Source: Xylella taiwanensis (GTDB taxonomy: Bacteria > Pseudomonadota > Gammaproteobacteria > Xanthomonadales > Xanthomonadaceae). From it: DNA of 32,000 bases. The number at the start of each line of letters is the position of its first letter. Position 1 is the stretch's first letter. A program made the position numbers and the translations under genes. The stretch is from NCBI RefSeq assembly GCF_013177435.1, contig NZ_CP053627.1:2310001-2342000 (forward strand). Direction: 5' to 3'. This document shows positions 6,898-30,005 of the stretch, piece after piece. The notes under the pieces were generated by a model. That model made no database searches. It saw only the letters and a list, made by a program, of their open reading frames with translations, and had not been told where the DNA came from.

Positions 6898-7404
6898 TCA
6901 GCCAGCATTATTGGGATTCACACCGTCAGCAGCGTGACATTGATCTGATCGCCAACACCCTACGAAACGCAGCCAGAATAAATGCAGCGCCAGCGGTAAC
7001 ACCGCAAGACCAACGCAGAAGGAAACGAACCAGGTAAACCCGACACCGCTGTGAAGTTGATGACCGTTAAAGAGCATTTGGATCTCCATCAAGACGGGCC
7101 ACAAAAAAAAGACAGCCCCAGGTATACCGATCATCAAACAGAGCCACCATGTCCAACTCCGTTGTACCAAACGAGATCGCCCTCCGGTCAGGAACGCATA
7201 CGACAACACCAGCCAGCCAATCAAGCACAACAAACGCGCTCCAAACCACACCAAAAACAGCCCAAGCAAGATCATCGAACCAGTCATTGCATCAAGCAGC
7301 CAATATAAGGATATAGGCCCACCAATCAAAAGGATGGGCACACCCAATAACAAAGCATGCGTCAGATAAAGCAAACGGCTTCTATCAAGCGATCTAACGT
7401 TCAT
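6898..7404 (-). CDS. hypothetical polytopic membrane protein
   Basis: 168 aa counted from the ATG at 7404; the longer ORF would overlap the glyA 3' end. Four or five hydrophobic segments. I do not recognise a family. Confidence 0.5.
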
Positions 7405-7487
7405 CACCAAAAATCCCTTTAAACAACACACAGCAGGATATGCGAGAAGCCCCGGCACAACCCAAGCACCACCCCAGATCCATCCAC

Positions 7488-8741
7488 TCAGCGATACACC
7501 GGGTACTTCCTGCACTGCGCTGCGACCTTCTCACGAACCGCGGCGATGACCGCCGCATCCGCAGGTGCATCAAGCACATCGGCAATCCAGTGAGCCAAAT
7601 CCACGCAATCCTGCTCCTGGTAACCACGCGTCGTGACGGCGGGAGTACCCAAGCGTAAACCAGAGGTCACGAACGGAGAGCGTGGATCGTCCGGCACCGC
7701 GTTCTTGTTGACGGTGATATGAGCCTGACCCAAGGCGCCCTCCGCGTCCTTCCCGGAGATATCCCTGCCGATCAGGTCAACTAACATCAAATGATTTTCT
7801 GTACCGCCGGAAACGATCTTATAGCCTCGTAACATGAGGGTCTTGGCCATCGCCTTGGCATTCTTCACCACCTGCTCCTGATACACCTTGAACGCAGGCT
7901 CCAGCGCTTCCTTAAAGGCGACTGCTTTAGCCGCGATCACATGCATCAATGGCCCACCCTGCATCCCGGGAAACACGATCGACTGCAACTTCTTGACCAA
8001 CGCCTCCTCCGGTGCCTGCGCCACAATGAGGCCACCACGTGGGCCACGCAGTGTCTTATGGGTCGTCGAAGTCACCACGTGGGCATGGGGCAGCGGATTC
8101 GGATACACACCGGCCGCCACCAAGCCAGCCACATGCGCCATGTCCACAAACAGGTAAGCGCCCACTTGATCGGCAATCGCACGGAAACGCGCCCAATCGA
8201 TCTGCTGCGAATACGCCGAGAAGCCCGCCACAACCATCTTCGGCCGATGCTCTAACGCAAGCGATTCAACAGCGTCGTAATCGATCAAGCCCTGACCATT
8301 CACTCCGTACTGAACCGCGTTGAACAGCTTGCCAGAAGCATTAACCTTGGCACCGTGAGTCAAGTGGCCGCCATGCGCCAAACTCATCCCGAGGATGGTA
8401 TCGCCTGGTTGCAACAGTGCGAAGTACACCGCTTGATTGGCCTGTGAACCGCTATGGGGCTGCACATTGGCATAGTCGGCACCGAACAATTGTTTGACGC
8501 GCTCAATCGCCAATTCCTCAGCAATATCAACATACTCACACCCACCGTAGTAACGCTTCCCCGGGTAGCCTTCGGCGTACTTGTTGGTCAGTTGACTCCC
8601 CTGCACCTGCATCACCAACGTGCTGCAATAATTTTCGCTGGCAATCAGCTCAACGTGGTCCTCCTGACGCATCACTTCAGCAGCGATGGCCTGAGCCAAG
8701 TCGGGATCGTACATTTCAAGACGGACATCGCGCGGGAACAT
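7488..8741 (-). CDS. glyA: serine hydroxymethyltransferase
   Basis: 417 aa counted from [15 protein letters not shown] (ATG at 8739-8741). PLP-lysine motif [12 protein letters not shown] is present. The upstream 74 codons of the ORF track are non-homologous. Confidence 0.95.
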
Positions 8742-11602: not shown

Positions 11603-11698
11603 TTGCTGGTTTTCAGCCAAAACAGCGCATCTCTTCCCCGCGCATCCGGCTTCCCAGCAAGTAACGCGCTAACTTTCCTTCTCGACATTACGCATCCC

Positions 11699-13387
11699 AT
11701 GAAGAAATCCCTTAAGGCTCTAACAGGCCTCATCGTGGCGTTTGCTCTGGCGACCCTCTTATTCTTGTACTGGCCGCTTTACCAGCGTTCTGTTCCAACC
11801 GCGAACAACGACACACCAGTGGACGTGGTGCTCATCGGTGGCGGCATCATGAGCATCACCCTAGGTACCTACTTACAAGAGCTGCAACCAGATTGGAAAA
11901 TCGAGTTGTTCGAACGCCTGAACGGTATCGGCATGGAAAGCTCAGACGGCTGGAACAACGCCGGCACGGGTCATTCCGCCTTCGCTGAACTGAATTACAC
12001 CCCCGAACTACAAGACGGCACCATCGAAACCAAACGTGCGATCAAGATCGCCGAACAATTCGAGATCTCGCGCCAATTCTGGTCCTATCAAGTCCATCAT
12101 GACCGCTTGCCCACACCGTCAGAGTTCATCACTCCGACCCCACACATGAGCTTTGTCTGGGGCGAAGATCGGATCGAATACCTACGCAAGCGCCACAACG
12201 CGCTCATTAAGAATCCCCTGTTCTACGGGATGCAGTTTTCCACCAATCCAACGGAGATCCAACAGTGGGCACCACTACTGATGGAGGGCCGGCCACCAAA
12301 CCAGAAAGTCGCTGCAACCTATATGCCGTTGGGAACTGACGTCAACTTCGGCGTCATTACCAGGAGTCTTGCCAAGCATCTGCAACAGAACCCAAACTTC
12401 ACACTGCGCCTGCGCCATGAAGTCACTGCACTGCGCCAAAACGCTGACAAGACGTGGAACGTGACCGTCAAGGACCTGATCAGCAATCAAGAACGCACTA
12501 TCAAATCACGCTTTGTGTTTATCGGGGCTGGTGGCGCTGCACTGAAACTGCTGCAAATGTCTGGGATCCCCGAATCCAAAGATTATGCTGGCTTTCCGGT
12601 CGGTGGCCAGTTTCTAGCCTTCGAGAACGCAGCAATCACGCAACGCCACAACGTTAAGGCCTATGGCATGGCCGAGACAGGCTCGCCGCCGATGTCGGTA
12701 CCGCACCTGGACGCCCGCAAACTCGACGGCAAATCCATCGTTCTCTTCGGGCCTTTTGCGCTTTACAGCACCAAATTCCTGAAGGATGGCTCCTGGTTCG
12801 ACCTGTATTCCTCGATCAACCATCACAATGCCGCTGGCATGCTGAGCGTCGGCGAAAAGAATCTAGACTTAGTTAAATACCTGTTGAAACAAGCCAGACT
12901 CAGCGATGCAGACCGCCATGCCGAACTTTTGAAGTACTTCCCCAACGCCAAACCGACCGACTGGACACTGGTCACGGCCGGCCAACGTGTACAAGTGATC
13001 AAACGTGATCCGGAGAAGGGCATGATTCTGCAATTCGGCACCGAAATCGTCATCGATAAGGCCCGCACCATCGCCGCCCTGCTAGGGGCCTCCCCTGGTG
13101 CATCGACCTCCCCGCCCATCATGCTGGATCTGCTGGCCAAAGCATTCCCGCAACAAATGAAAGATGGCTGGGAAACGCAATTGAAGAACATCATTCCTTC
13201 CTACGGACAGCACCTCAACGACAGCGTGATGCTGACCAACAGAATTCGACGGATGACCAGTGAGACGCTATCACTGCCATATCTGGAAGTACCGGACATA
13301 TCGGCCAACCGCCCTGCCCCTACCGCTGCCCCGAAGCCACAGCATTCCTCAACCCACAACGCCAATTCGGAAATGCAAACGCTCTAA
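11699..13387 (+). CDS. mqo: malate:quinone oxidoreductase (FAD-dependent)
   Basis: 562 aa counted from the ATG at 11699. An N-terminal hydrophobic segment ([18 protein letters not shown]) is followed by the dinucleotide-binding motif [12 protein letters not shown] and Mqo-like sequence throughout. Confidence 0.9.
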
Positions 13388-17611: not shown

Positions 17612-18280
17612 TCAGCCGCCCTTATGCAAGTCCCTCCGAACATACAATGGACCGGCTCCGCATCTGGGTGACACACGATACTTGCGGAACCTGTCTGGAA
17701 CATTGGGATGCTCGAGAGGCCCCACATATTCACAGCAGTTCAAACACATCTGGACAGTATGACCGCAGACAGGAATCCTCTCTCCCGTCAGCAGTGTATC
17801 TTTCATCTTGATCCTGAAGACACTTCTCCAAAGGGGCAAAACACACTCCTTCGATCTGATGGTGAACTTCTGTGTGCCCCAGCCAGAGACACTTCCGCCT
17901 CGCTGAACACCTGATCCGAGTAATGCACCGACTGGAACGCGACGACAGCGTCAAAGCACTCCAGACCAAGATACTGTTCACGCATCACGTCCACACCACA
18001 CACCCTCCCGGCTCACGTACGCACACTCTGCCACGCAGCACGTGCAACATCACAACGCCACCTTCAGCATTGCACTCCTCATGTTCAATACACTGAAACA
18101 CTCTGGAGCGGACATCACCTGATGACTGAGATGTTGAAACAAACAACACTGTGATCCAGTCATGTCAGCAACAGAAAATACACCACCGGACACTGCCGCC
18201 AAATCAATCAGGACATATGGAAAACCGTTTTTACCCGCATCTCCAAGAACCACTAAAAAAATCACGAAGATCCCAACCAC
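17612..18280 (-). pseudogene. relic of a class I SAM-dependent methyltransferase-like gene (multiple frame breaks)
   Basis: My hand translation of the minus strand gives consecutive fragments in three frames. These are ...YVLIDLAAVSGGVFSV... (degenerate motif I VLDLGxGxG), ...HLSHQVMSA..., ...ECFDAVVAFQSVHYSDQVFSEAEVSLAGAH... (the FDxVxxxxxLHH...VLKPGG region), then a Cys-rich tail (CGHTVQMCLNCC). All are interrupted by stops. Confidence 0.4.
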
Positions 18281-18373
18281 AGATAACAGAACATCCCTTG
18301 CCTATGACCAACATTGCACCAAACGGTATCAATGCATCGACCTATTATTGTTCAAAGAGTTTTTCTGCCTCTC

Positions 18374-18622
18374 TTAACACCGACGGGAATCTGAGGTGCA
18401 ATTGCCACAACGATGACAAGCGCCGACACGACGCATCTCTGGCACCAAGCGATGCCCGAAACGCTGTATCCAGAGAGGTCGACCTGATCGGGTCAAATGC
18501 CACGCCAGTACAGTACAGACTCGACTCCAGGTACCGGGCAGATACTTGCGCACCACCACAAGCACACTGACAACCACCACCAACGCAATCACCACATATT
18601 GCAGTAGCAATGACACGCTCAT
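18374..18622 (-). CDS. small FeoB-associated Cys-rich membrane protein (FeoC-position gene)
   Basis: 82 aa starting 3 nt after the feoB stop. One N-terminal TM helix (LLLQYVVIALVVVVSVLVVV) and a C-terminal CxxCxxC (GACHRCGNCTS). Confidence 0.6.
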   Translation of the reverse strand: MSVSLLLQYVVIALVVVVSVLVVVRKYLPGTWSRVCTVLAWHLTRSGRPLWIQRFGHRLVPEMRRVGACHRCGNCTSDSRRC

Positions 18623-20476: not shown

Positions 20477-20721
20477 ACGACCGTCTCCATCGGTACCACT
20501 CGGATGCGCTGCGCCTCAGCCCGCCGTAAAGCAAAACGGGTGTAACCAACCTGCACCAGGAGCGGCTCACGCCCCAACGGGCCAGTCGCCAGCACCGTGA
20601 TCTCTTCGCCGGCAACGAAACCCAGTTCGCGCAAGCGTCGTGCAATCACATCGTTAGGCTGACGATCCTCCACCGCTTCCACGACCACGGTGCGGTGCAA
20701 CACCATATCCAACAACGTCAC
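20473..20721 (-). CDS. feoA: ferrous iron transport protein FeoA
   Basis: About 80-aa SH3-like FeoA (RRLRELGFVAGEEITV) translationally coupled to feoB. The start is GTG at 20721 or ATG at 20706. Confidence 0.9.
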   Translation of the reverse strand: MTLLDMVLHRTVVVEAVEDRQPNDVIARRLRELGFVAGEEITVLATGPLGREPLLVQVGYTRFALRRAEAQRIRVVPMETVV

Positions 20722-20738
20722 AAAACGCTCTTAATGAC

Positions 20739-20757
20739 AAGAATGGTTCTCAATATT
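20739..20757 (-). promoter_or_regulatory. Fur-box-like operator upstream of feoA
   Basis: The minus-strand sequence AATATTGAGAACCATTCTT matches 13 of 19 positions of GATAATGATAATCATTATC. It lies 18-36 nt upstream of the feoA start. Confidence 0.4.
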
Positions 20758-20760
20758 AAC

Positions 20761-22328
20761 ATCGCCTGTCGAAGTCAGCGCAGTGCATCATCACTGCACA
20801 GCACATCCCAGGGATGGTCGTCTCCCAACACTGTGAATATTGAGGCTGTTACTGGCGTGCCTGACTCCATGACTGTCGATCGTGGATCGCAAACCTCCTT
20901 GTTGCGCCTGTACCAACCAGACACCCTGCACAACACCTGCAACGCCACGCTAAAGTACATGTTGTCACCCTTGTCAGGAGCGATGCTCCGCTGTGACTTC
21001 ACCCCAATGGGTAACAAAATCCAGCCGTTTCAAAGGCAGTGACGAGAACCCGGAGTCTGTTAACACTTATGTCACTGAGGCAATTTCGCTGCGGGACTGA
21101 ACGTATGGAGATCCCAGCTACCCAATTCATGCAAGTTGACCACTGCTTTTTTTAGTCACTCTGCCGAAGCAACGCGGCAACGTCAGTCCGACGAATATGC
21201 AGGTACGCGACACTATCCTGTATCTTTTGAATACCGCTGCCAATGACGTGACCTGCCCAAGCGCTCAGCGACTGGCACACGATCTACACACGCATAAGCC
21301 GGGCATGACAGCGACCCTCGGTCACTTTCATGACAACAGTCCACCGGAGGACATCACCTTTGGAGAGCAGTTCCGGCCTCCTACCTTACAGACGCGAAGG
21401 GAAACCGTGTAAGCATTAGCCCATGAGCAACCCGCATCGGCGAACCATGCCTGAATTTTGGTCATCTGCAGAGAACACTCGACTTACCCTTAGGCCTACC
21501 GACCCAATGGCAGACCACCACAACGGGTTTGCCGAGAATGCCGTCAAGATGGAACTGCCTGTTGGCAATCACCTTGAGTCGTCACTGATTGGCACGTGCC
21601 CACGATCACCGAATCAACCGCCCCTCGGAAACGTCCGACTGTCGTAGCATTGCGATCTACACCTGAGCGCAGCGCATTACCTCCCCCCTTCACACTAGCC
21701 AGTACTGCGCTTGGCCGGATCATGCTTACGGGAAACCATATCGACCAAATCACGACCCACCGCCGGGTCACACCTCCGGGTACCAGTATGGATCACCACC
21801 AAAAGGTGCTTGCAGATATCGGTGAGCTGCTGACTATGACGACACCAGGATTGAAGTCACTGCGGAATGCTTCCCCTGACATCACGTCACCTGCATCACT
21901 TGAACAACTGCAACCGCCAACACGTGCAACCAGTGATGTGCAAAGTACTGACAGCATTGCTTTGCAATCGATATCCAAGAAACCGTGCAAGGTCATCTTC
22001 AATGGATCACCCAACTTACGTTAGGCAATCGGCAACACCTGATCGAGCTACGAAGAATGCAACGCACCGCAACAACAGCACAGGGTTAGGTGAAGACATG
22101 ATCGACTCCTGAAACACAAGGACCACGCCCACTGTTACAGATGCCTGAGTGTTTAGGCACTTCACAGTAACCGCAACAGCCGACCATCGCACTTCGCCTA
22201 CTCCCTTTCGGCTTCCGGCCCCTTGCACCAGCAGGTAATCAGCACTGCTCCCTTTATGACGTCATACGAAGATGCTGGTTTAAACTCCAGAACGACGGTG
22301 GCTTTATTATTTAGGACTGTGTCTCGGC
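20761..22328. other. ORF-poor tract with only short mutually overlapping ORFs (probable decayed DNA)
   Basis: No ORF longer than 142 aa occurs on either strand over 1.6 kb. The listed ORFs overlap in different frames and have low-complexity P/T/S/H or R/G/V composition. Confidence 0.55.
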
Positions 22329-22629
22329 CTATCTAATCAGTAAAAGATCTCCAGACGCCACTCCAGGACCTCCATGGGACTGAAGGCAAATACGATAGCC
22401 ACCATCGTACAGATGCACATTAAACAGCTCGGACCGACGCTGCACACACGCATCGTTCCTTGGGCATACGACCGCAAGAGGTACAAGCGCCGCAATTAAG
22501 ATCGAGTGCCTGTTCCGGAGACTCAAGAGCTATCAACGCATCTGCTCCAGATGCGAGACACTCGCTGCCATGTTTATCACCGTTATCTGATTGGCTCCGA
22601 TTGCGGATGGCTTGCAATCGTGTTAGCAA
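22329..22629 (-). pseudogene. possible relic of a 4Fe-4S ferredoxin-type domain gene
   Basis: Two overlapping minus-strand ORFs in different frames join as ...ALIALESPEQALDLNCGACTSCGRMPK / NDACVQRRSELFNVHLYDGG.... The CxxCxxCxxx-P pattern resembles CxxCxxCxxxCP with the fourth Cys missing. Confidence 0.3.
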
Positions 22630-22881
22630 ATGATGCTTTTTATCTTTAGAAACAGGTCAGATGAAAAGCACCAGCGACAAGAAGAACGCTCCAATAACGA
22701 ATTTAAGGAAAAAACATTCACTGTCGGACTCGTACACATACCAAAGATCACGTCTCAAGCGATGATGACCCCATACATGCCCCGATTCACCTTGCAATCT
22801 GAATATATCTGCACTCTTTTCGTGATTCACACATTCAATACACATCTTAGATTGTTTTAAAGGCGAACCTATCAACCTCGC

Positions 22882-23658
22882 TCAGAAACCATAGCGCATA
22901 AAACCGCCATCCACCGCGATGCATTCGCCGGTCACATAACTCGACGCTGGCAGACAAAGGAATGCCACTGCCGCAGCCACTTCCTCAGGTTCTCCAATGC
23001 GGCGCATCGGCGTACGCTCAATGACCTGCTCGTAATAGTACAGCTCGGAGAGCGGCGCCGACGTGCGACGAGTACGGATATACCAAGGTGCCACTGCATT
23101 GACACGGATGCCATCCTCAGCCCATTCGACAGCCAAATTACGGGTCATCTGGTGCAACGCCGCCTTGCTCATTCCATACGGCACCCCGGTACGCACATGA
23201 GTCAAGCCAGACACACTACCAACATTGACAATCGCTGTACTGGCATGACGCGCCAACAACGGCTGCGTGTAACGACACAACTCAAACGCAGAGAACAAAT
23301 TAATCTCAAAAATTTCACGCCACTCGTCTTCTGTATAGTCAAGCGCTGCACGCATAACATTGCCGCCGGCATTGTTGATCAACACATGCAAGCCATTGCT
23401 GCGGTCTTCGACCCAGTCCAGAATCGCGCGGCGGTCCTCATCGTCGGCAACGTCAGCAGACAACCCATGTAGCTCACGCTCAGGGAACTCGTCTGCCAGT
23501 TCGTCGCGTACTCGCGCCAACAAATCAGCGTCGCGCGCTACCAACAGCACATCGGCACCCAATCCCAACAACTCACGAGCAACCGCCAAACCGATACCCG
23601 TACTCGCACCAGTGATCAAAGCCGTGCGGCCATCCAAACGCCAACGGGATTGGATCAT
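22882..23658 (-). CDS. short-chain dehydrogenase/reductase (tropinone-reductase-like SDR)
   Basis: 258 aa counted from the ATG at 23658, with GGAGA upstream. Contains [12 protein letters not shown] and the catalytic YGMSK. Confidence 0.9.
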
Positions 23659-25086
23659 CGTATTCTCCATTCGCTCATGGAAAACATCCACCAGATGGTC
23701 ACGGGTAACGGCATAAAATATCTTCCTCGCACCAACGGATGTCTGCCGTGAAACTGCTCTGCATCCTTACCATCCTACTGCCAACCCTGGCCACTTATTG
23801 TCACCCACCATCGGTACACATCGATGGGCCGCCTACACCATCAACGAGGCCAGTGACGCGCATCAGTACAACAGCCACTGACACGCACTCCGAACAGGCA
23901 TCCATTGCGTGCTGCCCTCTCATAGCAAATCAAGAACACATCACCTCCAGCGGCATACTTGATGCGTATGCGATCATTGCAAAGGCACTCAGATGACTTA
24001 GCAAGCAGAGCCATGTAAAGATCGATCAAGGCTCAAAGCCTCTCATGGGATCTTGAGAAATGCCAGCCCTGACAACCGATGGTCTGCTTGGATTAAACAT
24101 TGGAATTTTTATTCTGATTGCATTTTGAGCGGTTACCAAGCTTAAACACACCCTCACCGCTCATCCAACAAGCGTCATCCTCGCAACGTGCCTTCAGAGT
24201 TATAGCAACAGATGAACTTGCAGATGACTGCATCGCTTAGAGACATCACTGAATAGCAATCGCTCATGCTTTCACCTCGTGGAAACGCTCATGTTGTGCA
24301 GCTTCACTGAAGCTGCGCATTGGGACGACAACACGACATCCCAAGTGCGAACGCTTTAAAGAGCTTAAGCTACACAATACAAGGTGTTAGCGATGTACTC
24401 CAGGCAGACAACCGTTGGTATTCACGGGGACGAGACTTGACCTCAATCACTGCACCTGCGCACAGTCGCATTTGAGCATGCACAACACATCACAGCCTGC
24501 AAATTCAAATCTCCGACCTCTATACATGACATGCTGTGCTTAGCCTTCATGCATTTAAAAATCAACCAGGCCAAACACGCCACCGGACAAACTTTAATAC
24601 CGCCGTACAAGCCCCAACTCATTGGCGGTTAACCCGATGACCAGCTCGATAGAAATGATCAATATTCTTCACATCCATTCTCGTGGATTGCAGAACATGA
24701 CAACCTGGTTAAAACAACTCCCGTGAGCAAGTCAAATTTGCACAGACTCCTAAAATCGATTGAATGCCCGCACCGAACGCATTAAGCAAATCGGCCGCAA
24801 TGTCCTACCAGGTGGTCAGCGATGGCGATGGCTGAATCAACGTACCCATAGAACTATTCTGCGTGCCTTACGACAAGCTCGGCTTGGAACGCCACTTTTG
24901 CTTGGATATACAAGACGACAACAACGACCAACCCAACAGCAGGCTAATACTCCACAGATAAACCTCTTCACCTTCCAATGTCCCACAATCAACTTGGTAA
25001 TACTGACCTAAAGCACCTACAAATGGCATGCATCAGCCATAGATATCCAGCCGTCCCCAGGATGAAGCAACAGACCCCACCAGTGA
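23659..25086. other. 1.4-kb tract without credible ORFs
   Basis: Only three short ORFs of 62-85 aa are listed. Stops occur in all six frames at intervals under 60 codons elsewhere in the tract. Confidence 0.55.
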
Positions 25087-25521
25087 CTACTTGACTACAC
25101 GCAAGTGCGATCGCTTCCCTGAAACAGATGGGGGATCTTTCCCGCCATTAGGCGTGGTAGGCGGGGGCACGTCGTCTGGTGGCTCACCCGAGATGATATC
25201 CTCCGGCAATGCCATACCCTGCCCCGTTTCACGCGCGTACACCGCTAATACCGCTGGCATTGGCACCTGCACCGGATAGCTGACTCCAGCGAAACGCGCA
25301 TTAAAGCTGACACTCTCATCGCCGATATGCAAATGCATCACTGCACGTCCAGCAATGTTCAAGACCACCCGACCATCCTTGACGGCACTTGCCGGCACTT
25401 GCACCCCCTGGACGCAAGCATCGACCAGGATATGTGGCGTCATCCCATTGTCGTTGATCCATTCCACCAACGCTCGCAATAGATAGGGCCGATGACTGGT
25501 CATTCGTGGAAATTCACTCAT
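25087..25521 (-). CDS. sspB: ClpXP adaptor / stringent starvation protein B
   Basis: 144 aa with an SspB fold N-terminus (RPYLLRALVEWINDNGMTPHI), a flexible P-rich linker and the C-terminal ClpX-binding tail LRVVK. Confidence 0.9.
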   Translation of the reverse strand: MSEFPRMTSHRPYLLRALVEWINDNGMTPHILVDACVQGVQVPASAVKDGRVVLNIAGRAVMHLHIGDESVSFNARFAGVSYPVQVPMPAVLAVYARETGQGMALPEDIISGEPPDDVPPPTTPNGGKDPPSVSGKRSHLRVVK

Positions 25522-25557: not shown

Positions 25558-26193
25558 TCAAACAGCCAAGTCACGTAATTTCTTTTCCTGCTCGGTGAGA
25601 CTGCGGAGGAACCCTGGATTGCGGAAAATACGGTTACCGTAATCCTCGATCACCTTACCATCCTTTGGCAACGGCACGTCCAGCGCCTGTAAGCGCCAAA
25701 TAATCGGTGCCATCGCGCAATCGGCCAAGCTCATCTCCCCATTTAGAAAGAACTTGCTAGCCTTGAATAACGGTACCGAGGCAGTCAGCAATTCCTTGAG
25801 CCGCTTACGCCCAGCCTCGGCTTGAATCTTGTTGCCAAGTTGGATGGCCTGTACCTGAGGAACCCAATCATGTTCGATACGCAACATAGCCAGACGGAGC
25901 CGCGCACGCGACAGCGGATCCATCGGCATGAGCGGCGGATGGGGGTAACGCTCATCGACGTATTCGCTCACCACGGAAGCAGCGTACAGCACCAACTCAC
26001 GCTCAACCAGTGTCGGTACAGAATGATAGGGATTAAGGTCAATCAGATCCTCGGGAGGATTCTGCGGATCTACAGATACCATGTCATAAGTCACTCCCTT
26101 GGCCGCAAGAACCAAGCGCACTCGATGACACAACACATCATTGGTCGCGGAAAACAGGGTTAAGGTATTTCGCATACGCACACTCATCGCCAT
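25558..26193 (-). CDS. sspA: stringent starvation protein A (GST-like)
   Basis: 211 aa resembling E. coli SspA (MTLFS...VRLVLAAKGV...NPYHSVPTLV). Lies immediately upstream of sspB. Confidence 0.9.
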   Translation of the reverse strand: MAMSVRMRNTLTLFSATNDVLCHRVRLVLAAKGVTYDMVSVDPQNPPEDLIDLNPYHSVPTLVERELVLYAASVVSEYVDERYPHPPLMPMDPLSRARLRLAMLRIEHDWVPQVQAIQLGNKIQAEAGRKRLKELLTASVPLFKASKFFLNGEMSLADCAMAPIIWRLQALDVPLPKDGKVIEDYGNRIFRNPGFLRSLTEQEKKLRDLAV

Positions 26194-26290
26194 TCAAGGC
26201 TCTCCAACGACCGGAATCCGCCGGCCGCATCAACAACCACCGGCCCAATGCCGAAGGTCTCCACAATATCAGCGAGTTTGCAATCAGCCA

Positions 26291-27065
26291 TCATAAAAGC
26301 CAATAGCAGATACAGGCCACTGATATCACGTCCCTCAACGCACGTCCTCTCAATAGGCCTTCTTGAGTAGACAGGCCAAGAAAGTCAACAAGGCCAGAAA
26401 AAACATTACACACACTCTCAAAGAGTGCCGTTGTAACACCGCAGGCTCGGCGGCATATTTTGCAGGAAATTGACAATATCACGCACAGTCTGGTCGAACT
26501 CTGTAGCATTCTAATGACCGGGCTGACCGATCAGCATTAGCCTGCGATGCCCCTACATATTCTGCCCGTTGCACGCCCTGCAGCTGCCACAATGGATTGG
26601 GCACAGAAACGTCGACAAACAACCGATTGTTCCAACCCAGCGAGCAAGTCGAGTCTACGTAGAAAAACCTCAGAATAAGCGTAGATCCAATCACTTCCAC
26701 GTACACGGGCCGTCAAACCCAGATCCGGCGGCATCTTACCAAACCACTGCGCGGCAGCGTCAACCCGCATCGCTGTCATGATCGTATCGCTGATCTTGGC
26801 AAGGTTGAAGTTGAGATGACGCATCACTTGCACTTCACTCCGAACCACATCGGCAGCGATACGTGAATAACGCAGATACTGCAACGAATGGCAGTCCACG
26901 CCGTAATTCATGTCCAACTACGCGCTGCGCTGTCACGAAATACGGTGGCTAACGTCAGTACCGGCACTCCAACGGGACACCACCAGCCACTTGCGTAGCC
27001 GGCATCACTACAAACGGCAACAGCAAACACAGCATCCAACACGACCAGCACCGTAACGTCCTCAT
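26291..27065 (-). pseudogene. petC: cytochrome c1 (bc1 complex) pseudogene
   Basis: The signal-peptide ORF from the ATG at 27065 stops after about 36 codons. Homologous pieces then continue in other frames: MNYGVDCHSLQYLRYSR...WFGKMPPDLGLTARVRGSDWIYAY, then FYVDSTCSLGWNNRLF..VPNPLWQLQG, then DIVNFLQ. The heme attachment motif CxxCH reads GVDCH. Confidence 0.8.
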
Positions 27066-27066
27066 A

Positions 27067-28325
27067 TCAGCCATAGAAAGTCAATCGTTCCGGCACCGGC
27101 TTCTTAGCATCCAATACCGTCCACAATGGCATAGTGATGAAGAAGGTGAAATACAAAAAAATCAGCACACACCTTACATAAGATTTCCAAAACAACCGTA
27201 CCTGGCCGCCCCAATCACCGCCAGCCACACAAAACACACCACAAGCACGCCGCATCCCATCCGTGCCATCCAGCCATGATCACCAATCGAGCACACCCTG
27301 GCGCGGTCCAACCAGGGCACCAGAAACAAAAGCGATCGCAAAAAACATCACTAACACGCCCACGGATATTTACTGCGTACCAAACGCAACATCGCGTAGT
27401 ACACGGCGTAGTACCAGACCAGCTTGATGTCCTCAGGAGTGACCAAGCGATTAGCTTCAACAAAGTTGCCGTACTCCAGGAACAAACCGCCACACTCCGA
27501 AGCAAAGAAAATCACGAAAGCTGCCAACAACAAGATGCAAACACCAACCAGGTCCTTCACCATGTCATACGGATGGAACGGGATACTGTCAGCTGGCTTA
27601 AGAGTGGTCCAACAATTGCCATTAGCAGCCGGTTCGATGTCGATACCATCCGGATGGTTGCCACCAACCTCGCGCAACGCACCGAGATGCAGCACCACCA
27701 ACAGCAGCAGCAGTACCTCAATCACGTGCAATGCTAAAGACGAAGGGTTGAACGTAACATCTGACCGCAAATCATCGCCCATGATCCACTCGGCCAAACC
27801 ACGACCGATCGCCGAGATCACACCGAACAGCGACATGATCGCCTGCGCGCCCCACAAAACGACACCTGCCCCACGGCAACACGCACCCCATGAATGCCTC
27901 GACCATCAGTACCAGGTCAATCAACATACCCAGGACCCAGCCTCAGTCAGGGGGCTTCTTGCCACTGCCGTATATCAGTCCACGGAACATATGCAGGTAT
28001 GCCACGATGAAAAACAACGAAGCCCCCATACGGGGCATATCACAGATCAACCAGCCCCCATTCGATGTCCCACATGATCCTCATTTCGATCGACTGGAAC
28101 ACCTCAGCAGCACTGGGTTTGTCATGCATCACCCAAAAGATGCCAGCGACGATCTGATTCACCAGGACCACCAGTAACAGCGATCCGCAGCAATACCAAA
28201 TGTTGAAATTTTTAGGTAAGTAGTACTTCGGTGACGTGTTTACGATAAAACAACAATGATCCCGGAGCACGCATCTCGATCCAGTCCAACAGCCCCCGAG
28301 CACCACAAGCAATGATGCTGTGCAT
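27067..28325 (-). pseudogene. petB: cytochrome b (bc1 complex) pseudogene
   Basis: Cytochrome b homology is spread over at least 5 frame segments. They run MHSIIACGARGLLDWIEMR..HVTE / YYLPKNFNIWY...HDKPSAAEVF..EWG / [57 protein letters not shown] / WGAQAIMSLFG...FHPYDMVKD..VWYY / a C-terminal fragment. An in-frame TGA lies at 27943-27945. Confidence 0.85.
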
Positions 28326-28916
28326 GGCTCCAGCACCCCGTGTTCCGTTCACGTTTTCTGGATCTAGACCGATCACGAACGTGCACTCATCGCGATAACG
28401 ATGCAGCGGCACCAGCAAAGTCTTCTGAGCTGGCATGCCACTAAAAACACATCCAGACATATCAAAACGCGACTTGTGGCAAGGACAGAAATAGCCCCCC
28501 CCCTTCCATTGTGGATCGAACGGCTGCGGGCAAATCTCAGCCACCATCTCTGGGAAACACCCTACGTGCGTACAGACACCCACCAAAACCGAAATCTCGG
28601 GCCTGATCGAACGCACATCAGGAGTGCGAAGCACATCACCAGGCTACTGACTCTTTACCTCAGACGTAGGATCCTTCAACCGCCCCCTCAAGCCGGACAA
28701 AGCATCGAGCATTGCCTTGGGACGCCTGACCACCCAGACCGGCTGACCACGCCACTCCAAAATCAAGCGCTGGCCTTCTGGCAACCCACTGATATCAACA
28801 ACCACTGGCACACCCGCCAATTTGGTCTTAGCACTGGAATTCAAAGACTTGAAAAAATGAACCGAGAGAAACCCTGCACCGATCAACGTCGTCGTCAGAA
28901 AACGTCGCCGCTTCAC
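28326..28916 (-). pseudogene. petA: Rieske iron-sulfur subunit (bc1 complex) pseudogene
   Basis: A Tat-type signal (MKRRRFLTT) and anchor are followed by an in-frame TAG at 28644-28646. Downstream in the same frame is the cluster-binding half (CTHVGC ... CPCHKS, versus canonical CPCHGS). The frame runs without a stop into the petB ATG. Confidence 0.8.
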
Positions 28917-29096
28917 GTTGCTAGACGCATGGCCCTCATCACTTCACCATGTCGCACTCCCCGAATCGTCCCCAAATATCTTAGACCTACGCATGCACCA
29001 CTGGAGATACAACCCACGAAGATCACTGAGGCATACCAAAAAGCACTGGAGTGATGAACAACACGCGTACGCACCGCAACGCGAAACCACATACCT

Positions 29097-30005
29097 TCAT
29101 TGAGTACTCCGCAACGCCACGCGATAGCGTCCAAGAAGCACATTGACGCGTTCAACGTAACGCTGCGTCTCACTGTACGGCGGCACACCGCCATAACGGT
29201 CAACCGCACCCTCCCCGGCATTATAGCCAGCCGCCGCCAGTGTCAGATTGCCGTTAAAGCGCTTCAGCAACCAAGCCAAGTACTGCACACCACCACGGAT
29301 GTTTTGTATCGGATCATAAGCATCGGTCACCCCGAAACGCTGCGCCGTGGCTGGCATCAGTTGCATCAGCCCCTGTGCACCAGCACTACTCAGCGAAAGG
29401 GGGTTATACGAGGATTCAGCATGAATGATCGCACGCACCAACGCTTCTTCGACCCCAAATTGGCGTGCAGCGGAAGCGATTTCACCCTGGTAAGACGAAG
29501 TATTGAGACGCACCGATCCGAAATTGACCCCAGGATTAGCCGCACACGCATAGCAAGTTTCGATGAAGCTATAAGAAATCGTGCGCAATCCATACACATT
29601 GGCCACTTGCGTCGGAGGTTTACTGGTGTAATGACGCACACCATCCTCGATGTAGGAGTAAACCTGACCGCTGACCAAACGCTTCGCCCCCCCCACCGCC
29701 ACGGTGGAACGCGCCAACGCCGGCGTGGCTGAAGCACCAGCCACCGGAGGCGATGACACTGCAGCGTCTTGGGCAGACTCGGACATCGGCACCACGAGAG
29801 GCACAACCGCAGGGCGCGCGGGCAGAACCACAGATGGAGCACGACGCACGTTGCTGACCACGACAGTGCACTTAGCACCAGGAACGCGCTTGCTGACATA
29901 ACTAGGGATACCGTCAACGTTGAAACACTTGTAGAGTGCCGCCCCCCAAGCAGGCACCGCTATCATGGCCAGCAACAACCCGACAATGCGGAAGACCCTC
30001 TTCAT
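29097..30005 (-). CDS. lytic transglycosylase (SLT domain) with DUF4124-like N-terminus
   Basis: Signal peptide, YKCFNVDGIPSYVSK (DUF4124-like), an Ala/Pro/Val-rich linker, and the SLT catalytic motifs AIIHAESSYNP and GLMQLMPATA. Confidence 0.85.
   Translation of the reverse strand: MKRVFRIVGLLLAMIAVPAWGAALYKCFNVDGIPSYVSKRVPGAKCTVVVSNVRRAPSVVLPARPAVVPLVVPMSESAQDAAVSSPPVAGASATPALARSTVAVGGAKRLVSGQVYSYIEDGVRHYTSKPPTQVANVYGLRTISYSFIETCYACAANPGVNFGSVRLNTSSYQGEIASAARQFGVEEALVRAIIHAESSYNPLSLSSAGAQGLMQLMPATAQRFGVTDAYDPIQNIRGGVQYLAWLLKRFNGNLTLAAAGYNAGEGAVDRYGGVPPYSETQRYVERVNVLLGRYRVALRSTQ

Follow-up and report, generated by a model that had tools for sequence, protein, structure and literature searches.

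Does a bacterium that carries all three genes of the cytochrome bc1 complex (complex III) at their conserved genomic position still make this complex when every one of the genes is broken, and if it does not, when was the complex lost and what would its loss mean for the cell? We consider this question for a stretch of 32,000 nucleotides of Xylella taiwanensis (positions 2,310,001 to 2,342,000 of contig NZ_CP053627.1, assembly GCF_013177435.1), hereafter the window, in which the petA-petB-petC operon, encoding the Rieske iron-sulfur subunit, cytochrome b and cytochrome c1, lies upstream of sspA-sspB. A preliminary description of the locus, made from its sequence alone, had held that all three pet genes are recognisable but dead. 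Homology searches and a complete lesion map bear this out, and from these, from independent assemblies and from the pattern of substitution we conclude with high confidence that the locus holds a petABC pseudogene cluster which is non-functional, fixed and specific to the X. taiwanensis lineage.

The pet genes are present at full length and all are broken

The remnants of petA, petB and petC occupy positions 26335-28950 on the minus strand, between a lytic transglycosylase gene (SLT domain) and the intact sspA-sspB pair. With the intact PetA, PetB and PetC of Xanthomonas albilineans (locus L009) as tblastn queries, PetA is recovered from the window in a single frame with one internal stop (E = 6e-82), PetB as four high-scoring segment pairs across three frames (E = 4e-114) and PetC as two segment pairs across two frames (E = 7e-50). 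These values make the homology certain, and the matches span the genes over their full lengths. Pfam searches of the remnant fragments give matches to Rieske, Cytochrome_B and Cytochrom_B_C, with Cytochrom_C1 falling below the Pfam cut-off. Alignment to intact operons places the petA pseudogene at 28326-28950, petB at 27067-28325 (supported also by Pfam) and petC at 26335-27074, all on the minus strand. The petC ATG (27072-27074) overlaps the end of petB, as in intact operons, and the petC stop codon (26335-26337) marks the end of the remnant. Gene callers either mark nothing here or pick out no more than short pieces. One such fragment, of 98 amino acids (aa) across the petA/petB junction (28040-28336, minus strand), is listed in RefSeq as the 'hypothetical protein' WP_425511068.1; the entry is an annotation artefact, a pseudogene fragment entered as a protein.

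Lesions were called from DNA alignments to three intact operons, those of Xylella fastidiosa M12 (locus L089), Xylella rufipogonis (locus L091) and X. albilineans. Relative to these orthologues the remnant carries 12 frameshifting indels, 5 in-frame indels and 6 in-register stop codons, and petA has in addition lost its stop; most of the indels lie outside homopolymers. The ancestral start of petA is the ATG at 28948-28950, and the GTG at 28916 from which the preliminary description began the remnant is fortuitous. A single inserted T at 28941 turns the beginning of the gene into ATG GTG AAG TGA, so that translation would meet a TGA after 3 codons. Further downstream, a 15-bp deletion after 28883 shortens the membrane anchor by 5 residues, codon 107 is changed from Gln to a stop (the TAG at 28644-28646 that had been noticed earlier), and three bases (GGG) are inserted at 28501-28503 inside a G run. 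With its own stop codon gone, the petA frame reads through into the petB ATG at 28325, just as had been described. The Tat motif KRRRFLT and the cluster boxes CTHVGC and CPCHKS can still be read, with the TAG lying between motif and boxes and the frameshift and anchor deletion preceding it. CPCHKS had been taken for a further lesion, which it is not: the intact PetA proteins of X. albilineans, X. fastidiosa and X. rufipogonis have the same box, and both boxes are intact in X. taiwanensis.

In petB, the frameshifts of the first half are +1 at 28228, +1 at 28059, -1 after 27873 and +2 at 27855-27856, which gives exact positions to the shifts that had been placed near 28226, 28050 and 27870. Codon 127 has become a TGA (27943-27945, also recognised before) by substitution. 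Three in-frame indels follow (+3 at 27741-27743, -6 after 27702 and -3 after 27534), and the breaks reported below 27360 resolve into a later series of frameshifts (+2 at 27368-27369, -2 after 27332, -2 after 27210 and +1 at 27181). The petC gene has indels of -2 after 26967, +1 at 26675, -3 after 26523 and +2 at 26460-26461, together with four in-register stops made by substitution (codons 31, 36, 172 and 225 in the X. rufipogonis register). Its N-terminal open reading frame (ORF) ends after 39 codons (26955-27074), in keeping with the early stop first described.

Residues that bind cofactors have disappeared as well, judged against those common to X. albilineans, X. fastidiosa and X. rufipogonis. 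The cytochrome b segment that reads RYMHSTGAS in the relatives has become CDMPRMGAS, so that the first heme-ligand His is now Pro, and in helix D the His-His spacing is 2 residues shorter. The Qo motif is PVWY in all three relatives and LVWY in X. taiwanensis. In cytochrome c1 the heme-attachment motif CxxCH (CVGCH or CSGCH in the relatives) reads GVDCH, and the conserved Met of the MPNP motif, which we infer to be the axial heme ligand, is replaced by Val. Both CDMPRMGAS and GVDCH had been read correctly in the preliminary description, and almost all of its coordinates hold as well. Of the features of a functional bc1 operon, then, uninterrupted reading frames, four correctly spaced His ligands, the Qo motif and CxxCH with the putative axial Met are missing; the readable Rieske boxes and Tat signal and the synteny with sspA-sspB are what is left.

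The lesions are true mutations

A sequence with this many breaks raises the question of whether they exist in the living organism or were introduced by sequencing and assembly, in which case the operon would in fact be intact. The window is identical to CP087686.1 and CP087695.1 over 12.4 kb, and a Logan assembly built directly from raw reads (SRR16971283) matches it at 100% identity along 10.65 kb, the entire pet region included. The 98-aa ORF begins at the petA/petB junction, passes the +1 at 28228 and ends at a stop that the +1 at 28059 produces; 24 assemblies contain it in exactly this form.

The X. taiwanensis assemblies differ from each other in homopolymer lengths only. At 28495-28503 the window has nine G where CP011800.1 and JAJPPU010000001.1 have eight, and at 27950-27954 it has five C where a short Logan contig of SRR11805344 has three. 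These two varying runs may be either sequencing noise or slippage-prone runs in pseudogenes.

The disagreement at two homopolymers is what speaks for an origin of the breaks in sequencing error. Against it, independent complete genomes and the raw-read assembly share the remaining lesions without change, most indels are not in homopolymers at all, and the six stop codons and the losses of ligands are substitutions. Errors would also leave unexplained the even spread of changes across codon positions described below. We therefore regard error as exceedingly improbable, in agreement with the earlier judgement: the pet lesions are true mutations.

The operon is intact in the closest relatives

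Is the loss a property of X. taiwanensis or of the genus? In X. fastidiosa, petABC is intact at the same position (in the 7 loci shown and at 17 similar places), and so it is in a second Xylella lineage (L091, with the same arrangement in L092, CM127491.1), which fits X. rufipogonis, a newly proposed species from wild rice (PMC12542735). As called, the intact ORFs of these two species are 210 aa for petA, 420 aa for petB and 229-253 aa for petC, and every heme and Fe-S ligand is kept. The X. fastidiosa (XF0908-XF0910, fbcFBC) and X. rufipogonis operons thus resemble the X. taiwanensis remnant in position (SLT-petA-petB-petC-sspA-sspB), gene order and length, and share 81-83% nucleotide identity with it (about 83% for L091). 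They differ from it in being uninterrupted and under purifying selection, whereas the X. taiwanensis genes are all broken and have lost ligands. No protein closer than 75% identity to the reconstructed X. taiwanensis PetB was found among 5.8 billion clustered proteins; the best match, at 75%, is from X. rufipogonis. For the Japanese Isodon-associated strain with 94% average nucleotide identity to X. taiwanensis, a search found no sequence.

Beyond the genus, the petABC-sspAB synteny is kept in Xanthomonas and Stenotrophomonas as it is in Xylella, which agrees with the conserved arrangement proposed at the outset. The bc1 operon of Xanthomonas and Stenotrophomonas is orthologous and has CPCHKS, PVWY and the petB/petC overlap in common with the Xylella operons. 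The Xanthomonas pet genes differ in their strong constraint (omega, the ratio of nonsynonymous to synonymous change, of 0.01-0.05).

Because the closest relatives keep petABC, the event of its loss can be dated. The operon was very probably inactivated after the split from X. rufipogonis and X. fastidiosa; the inactivated form is fixed in the sampled population and has since drifted neutrally.

Selection was released on all three genes alike

A pseudogene is expected to accumulate changes without regard to codon position, and this is close to what we find. The substitutions unique to X. taiwanensis are nearly even over codon positions 1, 2 and 3 (44, 43 and 59), while third positions dominate among those unique to X. 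rufipogonis (23, 20 and 81) and X. fastidiosa (43, 24 and 87). The corresponding three-taxon estimates of branch omega are 0.53 for X. taiwanensis (bootstrap 95% confidence interval 0.37-0.84), 0.13 for X. rufipogonis and 0.20 for X. fastidiosa. Taken gene by gene, the X. taiwanensis values are near-equal (0.52, 0.51 and 0.49 across the three pet genes): on this branch selection is relaxed, and to an equal degree in petA, petB and petC. We infer that the whole operon was released from constraint at once, and such simultaneous release is the expectation for an obligate three-subunit complex. Assuming an omega of about 0.16 while the genes were functional, the operon would, as a rough estimate, have been a pseudogene for some 40% of the X. 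taiwanensis branch.

Two observations weigh against reading the locus as wholly non-functional: the X. taiwanensis branch omega lies below 1, and petA, in which all Rieske cluster ligands remain, is less decayed than petB and petC. An omega below 1 is expected if inactivation took place part-way along the branch, and the value also allows an event more recent than estimated. The retained Rieske ligands and the overall similarity of the remnant are all that favours the idea that the genes are still expressed, by recoding (programmed frameshifts and stop read-through) or as split subunits, to give a working bc1 complex. Expression of this kind would require 12 frameshifts of varied size and sign and 6 stop read-throughs, would have to proceed with the heme b His, the Cys of the c1 CxxCH motif and the Pro of the Qo motif all substituted, and would not account for an omega that has risen to 0.53; we give it next to no probability. 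A pseudogene cluster, by comparison, shows full-length homology with multiple lesions, lesions common to independent isolates and relaxed selection on the lineage, and all three are seen here. The case is an ordinary one of gene loss, a probably unitary pseudogene cluster in the reduced genome of a pear pathogen.

The intact operons of the sister species hold a further signal. In the intact Xylella pet regions that we compared (L089 8032-10685 and L091 1107-3738), omega is 0.15-0.19; Xanthomonas pairs of similar synonymous divergence (dS) have 0.01-0.05, which makes the increase about 5- to 15-fold. Among the flanking genes omega rises about 4-fold in sspA and about 2-fold in sspB and the SLT gene. 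This suggests that constraint on bc1 is relaxed genus-wide in Xylella. Could the pseudogenisation itself then be ancestral to the genus, as part of its fastidious, oxidase-negative nature? The elevated omega of the intact genes would fit, as would the smaller change in sspA (only from about 0.012 to 0.05). Set against this, the ORFs of X. fastidiosa and X. rufipogonis are intact with all ligands there, petB is transcribed and regulated by the medium in X. fastidiosa (PMC3036931), and petC (XF0910) serves across X. fastidiosa as one of the seven Xylella housekeeping loci of multilocus sequence typing (MLST; PMC5462928; bioRxiv 10.1101/2020.06.08.140194). We consider an ancestral origin very unlikely. 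The preliminary description, which had seen the loss as fitting an oxidase-negative, fastidious Xylella-like organism, was right in that the organism is a Xylella; the link to a fastidious, oxidase-negative character fails with the intact petABC of X. fastidiosa and X. rufipogonis.

The relatedness of the region (window 30005-25127 against L091 and L089) is itself a mosaic. From the SLT gene through petA, X. taiwanensis is nearer X. rufipogonis, in agreement with the genome tree in the literature. The stretch that begins in the 3' half of petB and takes in petC, sspA and sspB is closer to X. fastidiosa, with petB/petC dS of 0.42-0.44 versus 0.54-0.62. Either an old recombination event whose breakpoint falls within the operon or unequal rates of change could have produced this pattern.

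Consequences for respiration

As far as this one locus can tell, X. taiwanensis would make no bc1 complex. Quinol would then be oxidised solely by one or more quinol oxidases, with electrons predicted to pass from dehydrogenases to ubiquinone and on to these oxidases alone, and malate:quinone oxidoreductase, whose gene is intact at 11603-13387, would be one of the dehydrogenases feeding ubiquinone. Why might such a loss be tolerated? In Xanthomonas, bc1 delivers electrons to cytochrome c oxidases. X. fastidiosa is reported, in a passage of PMC7112962 citing Bhattacharyya 2002, to have no cytochrome c oxidase and to depend on the cytochrome bo3 quinol oxidase for respiration. If the genus was already without cytochrome c oxidases, the value of bc1 would have been lowered. 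Given this reported deficit in X. fastidiosa, the cytochrome c route to oxygen was probably lost before Xylella diversified, and the decay of bc1 in X. taiwanensis may be a later, lineage-specific last step in a gradual trimming of the respiratory chain. X. fastidiosa combines this reported deficit with an intact petABC, which means that bc1 loss does not explain oxidase-negativity.

Taken further, X. taiwanensis would be a natural bc1 knockout, showing that Xylella can complete its entire life cycle, in xylem and in insects, without complex III; cytochrome c oxidases would have been lost first, with bc1 lingering under weakened selection in the sister species, and a purely quinol-oxidase chain would be the end point. 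We offer this tentatively, as a reading that is plausible without being quite probable. The lingering bc1 of X. fastidiosa and X. rufipogonis perhaps serves only periplasmic acceptors, for example azurin or a peroxidase. If the reading holds, a purely quinol-oxidase chain could contribute to the physiology and narrow host range of X. taiwanensis. The decay of the operon in itself sets up a clear metabolic contrast, predicted from the genes, between X. taiwanensis without complex III and the quarantine pathogen X. fastidiosa, in which the operon is intact and petB transcribed, and the reported lack of cytochrome c oxidase in the latter, together with the present loss, raises the question of what purpose bc1 has in X. 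fastidiosa.

Decayed respiratory modules have a precedent. Mycobacterium leprae, a host-restricted bacterium in genome reduction, carries decayed electron-transport genes, and its respiratory pseudogenes are of the same type: fixed, with multiple lesions, belonging to a dispensable energy module and left in conserved synteny. The M. leprae case concerns another complex and another lineage, and it is unlike X. taiwanensis, whose genus is reported to have lost the downstream oxidase beforehand and whose closest relatives keep the genes.

Sequence typing and previous reports

The use of petC as a housekeeping locus has a practical consequence. The primer sites of Yuan et al. for petC lie at 26874-26895 (3 mismatches) and 26340-26360 (2 mismatches), so that the X. 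taiwanensis petC MLST fragment (26340-26895) is wholly pseudogene, with three indels and stop codons; it is 556 bp long, and the corresponding fragments of X. fastidiosa and X. rufipogonis have 576 and 555 bp. Distances for X. taiwanensis that include petC in multilocus sequence analysis are inflated and reflect neutral decay, which is relevant when Xylella-like sequences are typed.

X. taiwanensis PLS229 is described as having 132 pseudogenes (Weng et al., PMC8176220). That genome paper leaves the bc1 loss unmentioned, and the word 'cytochrome' never occurs in it; nor does it occur in a 2025 Xylella survey of KEGG pathway completeness that includes PLS229 (PMC12542735), and neither work brings up the contrast with X. 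fastidiosa in complex III. A literature search by the accessions CP011800, CP087686 and CP087695 returned nothing. The loss of bc1 in X. taiwanensis has thus probably gone undiscussed before.

Flanking genes and a possible retained role

At every Xanthomonadaceae locus examined, the upstream neighbour of petA is the SLT transglycosylase gene, which in the window is intact (29097-30005, minus strand; identified by Pfam and synteny). On the other side, the petC-sspA intergenic region (26194-26334, minus strand) is better conserved than the body of the pet genes, with an identity of 0.88-0.90 to X. fastidiosa and X. rufipogonis, and the sspA promoter and ribosome-binding site are presumably located in it. 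Then follow sspA (25558-26193, minus strand, 211 aa, with GST_N and GST_C domains) and sspB (25087-25521, minus strand, 144 aa, Pfam SspB E = 5e-32), both intact; among the matches listed, the Xanthomonas SspA proteins nearest to that of the window share 93-94% identity with it.

The conservation of this spacer, the fact that about 2.6 kb of decayed DNA is still undeleted and the listing of WP_425511068.1 as a protein would be consistent with the remnant being kept for a new role, for example as a long leader or promoter of sspAB or because it encodes small proteins, that of the 98-aa ORF among them. Bacterial pseudogenes normally persist for some time, though, and the fragments are mere pieces of PetA, PetB and PetC whose substitutions look neutral. 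Rfam and tRNA scans of the window gave no match, a promoter and terminator scan found such sites at levels not above those in shuffled sequences, and the ORFs antisense to the remnant have no Pfam match. A new role for the decayed DNA is accordingly most doubtful, and persistence of a pseudogene cluster is the reading we keep.

The long antisense ORFs (27424-28077, 28401-29054 and 27276-27737), which match no family, occur in the intact X. albilineans operon too and are composition artefacts.

Other features of the window

Downstream of sspB, a 1.4-kb ORF-poor spacer without an Rfam match (23692-25086) separates it from an SDR gene (22882-23691). The spacer is homologous to non-coding DNA of X. 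rufipogonis (about 4984-6322 of L091) and is absent in X. fastidiosa, where the SDR gene and sspB are 20 bp apart. A second gap of about 2.3 kb (20545-22882) lies between feoA/feoB and the SDR gene, holds a single unannotated ORF of 142 aa (21596-22024) without a Pfam match, and may likewise have decayed. The ORF-poor stretches 20477-22881 and 23692-25086 were searched for leftovers of Xanthomonas neighbour genes, and neither gave any.

Two more ORFs have no Pfam match and stand among housekeeping genes, one of 205 aa (6898-7515, minus strand) in the nrdR/glyA neighbourhood and one of 139 aa (18151-18570, plus strand) in that of feoB. Across the whole window (1-32000) most genes are on the minus strand, GC skew is strongly negative (-0.03 to -0.26) and AT skew is strongly positive, with no change of sign, which places the window within one replichore.

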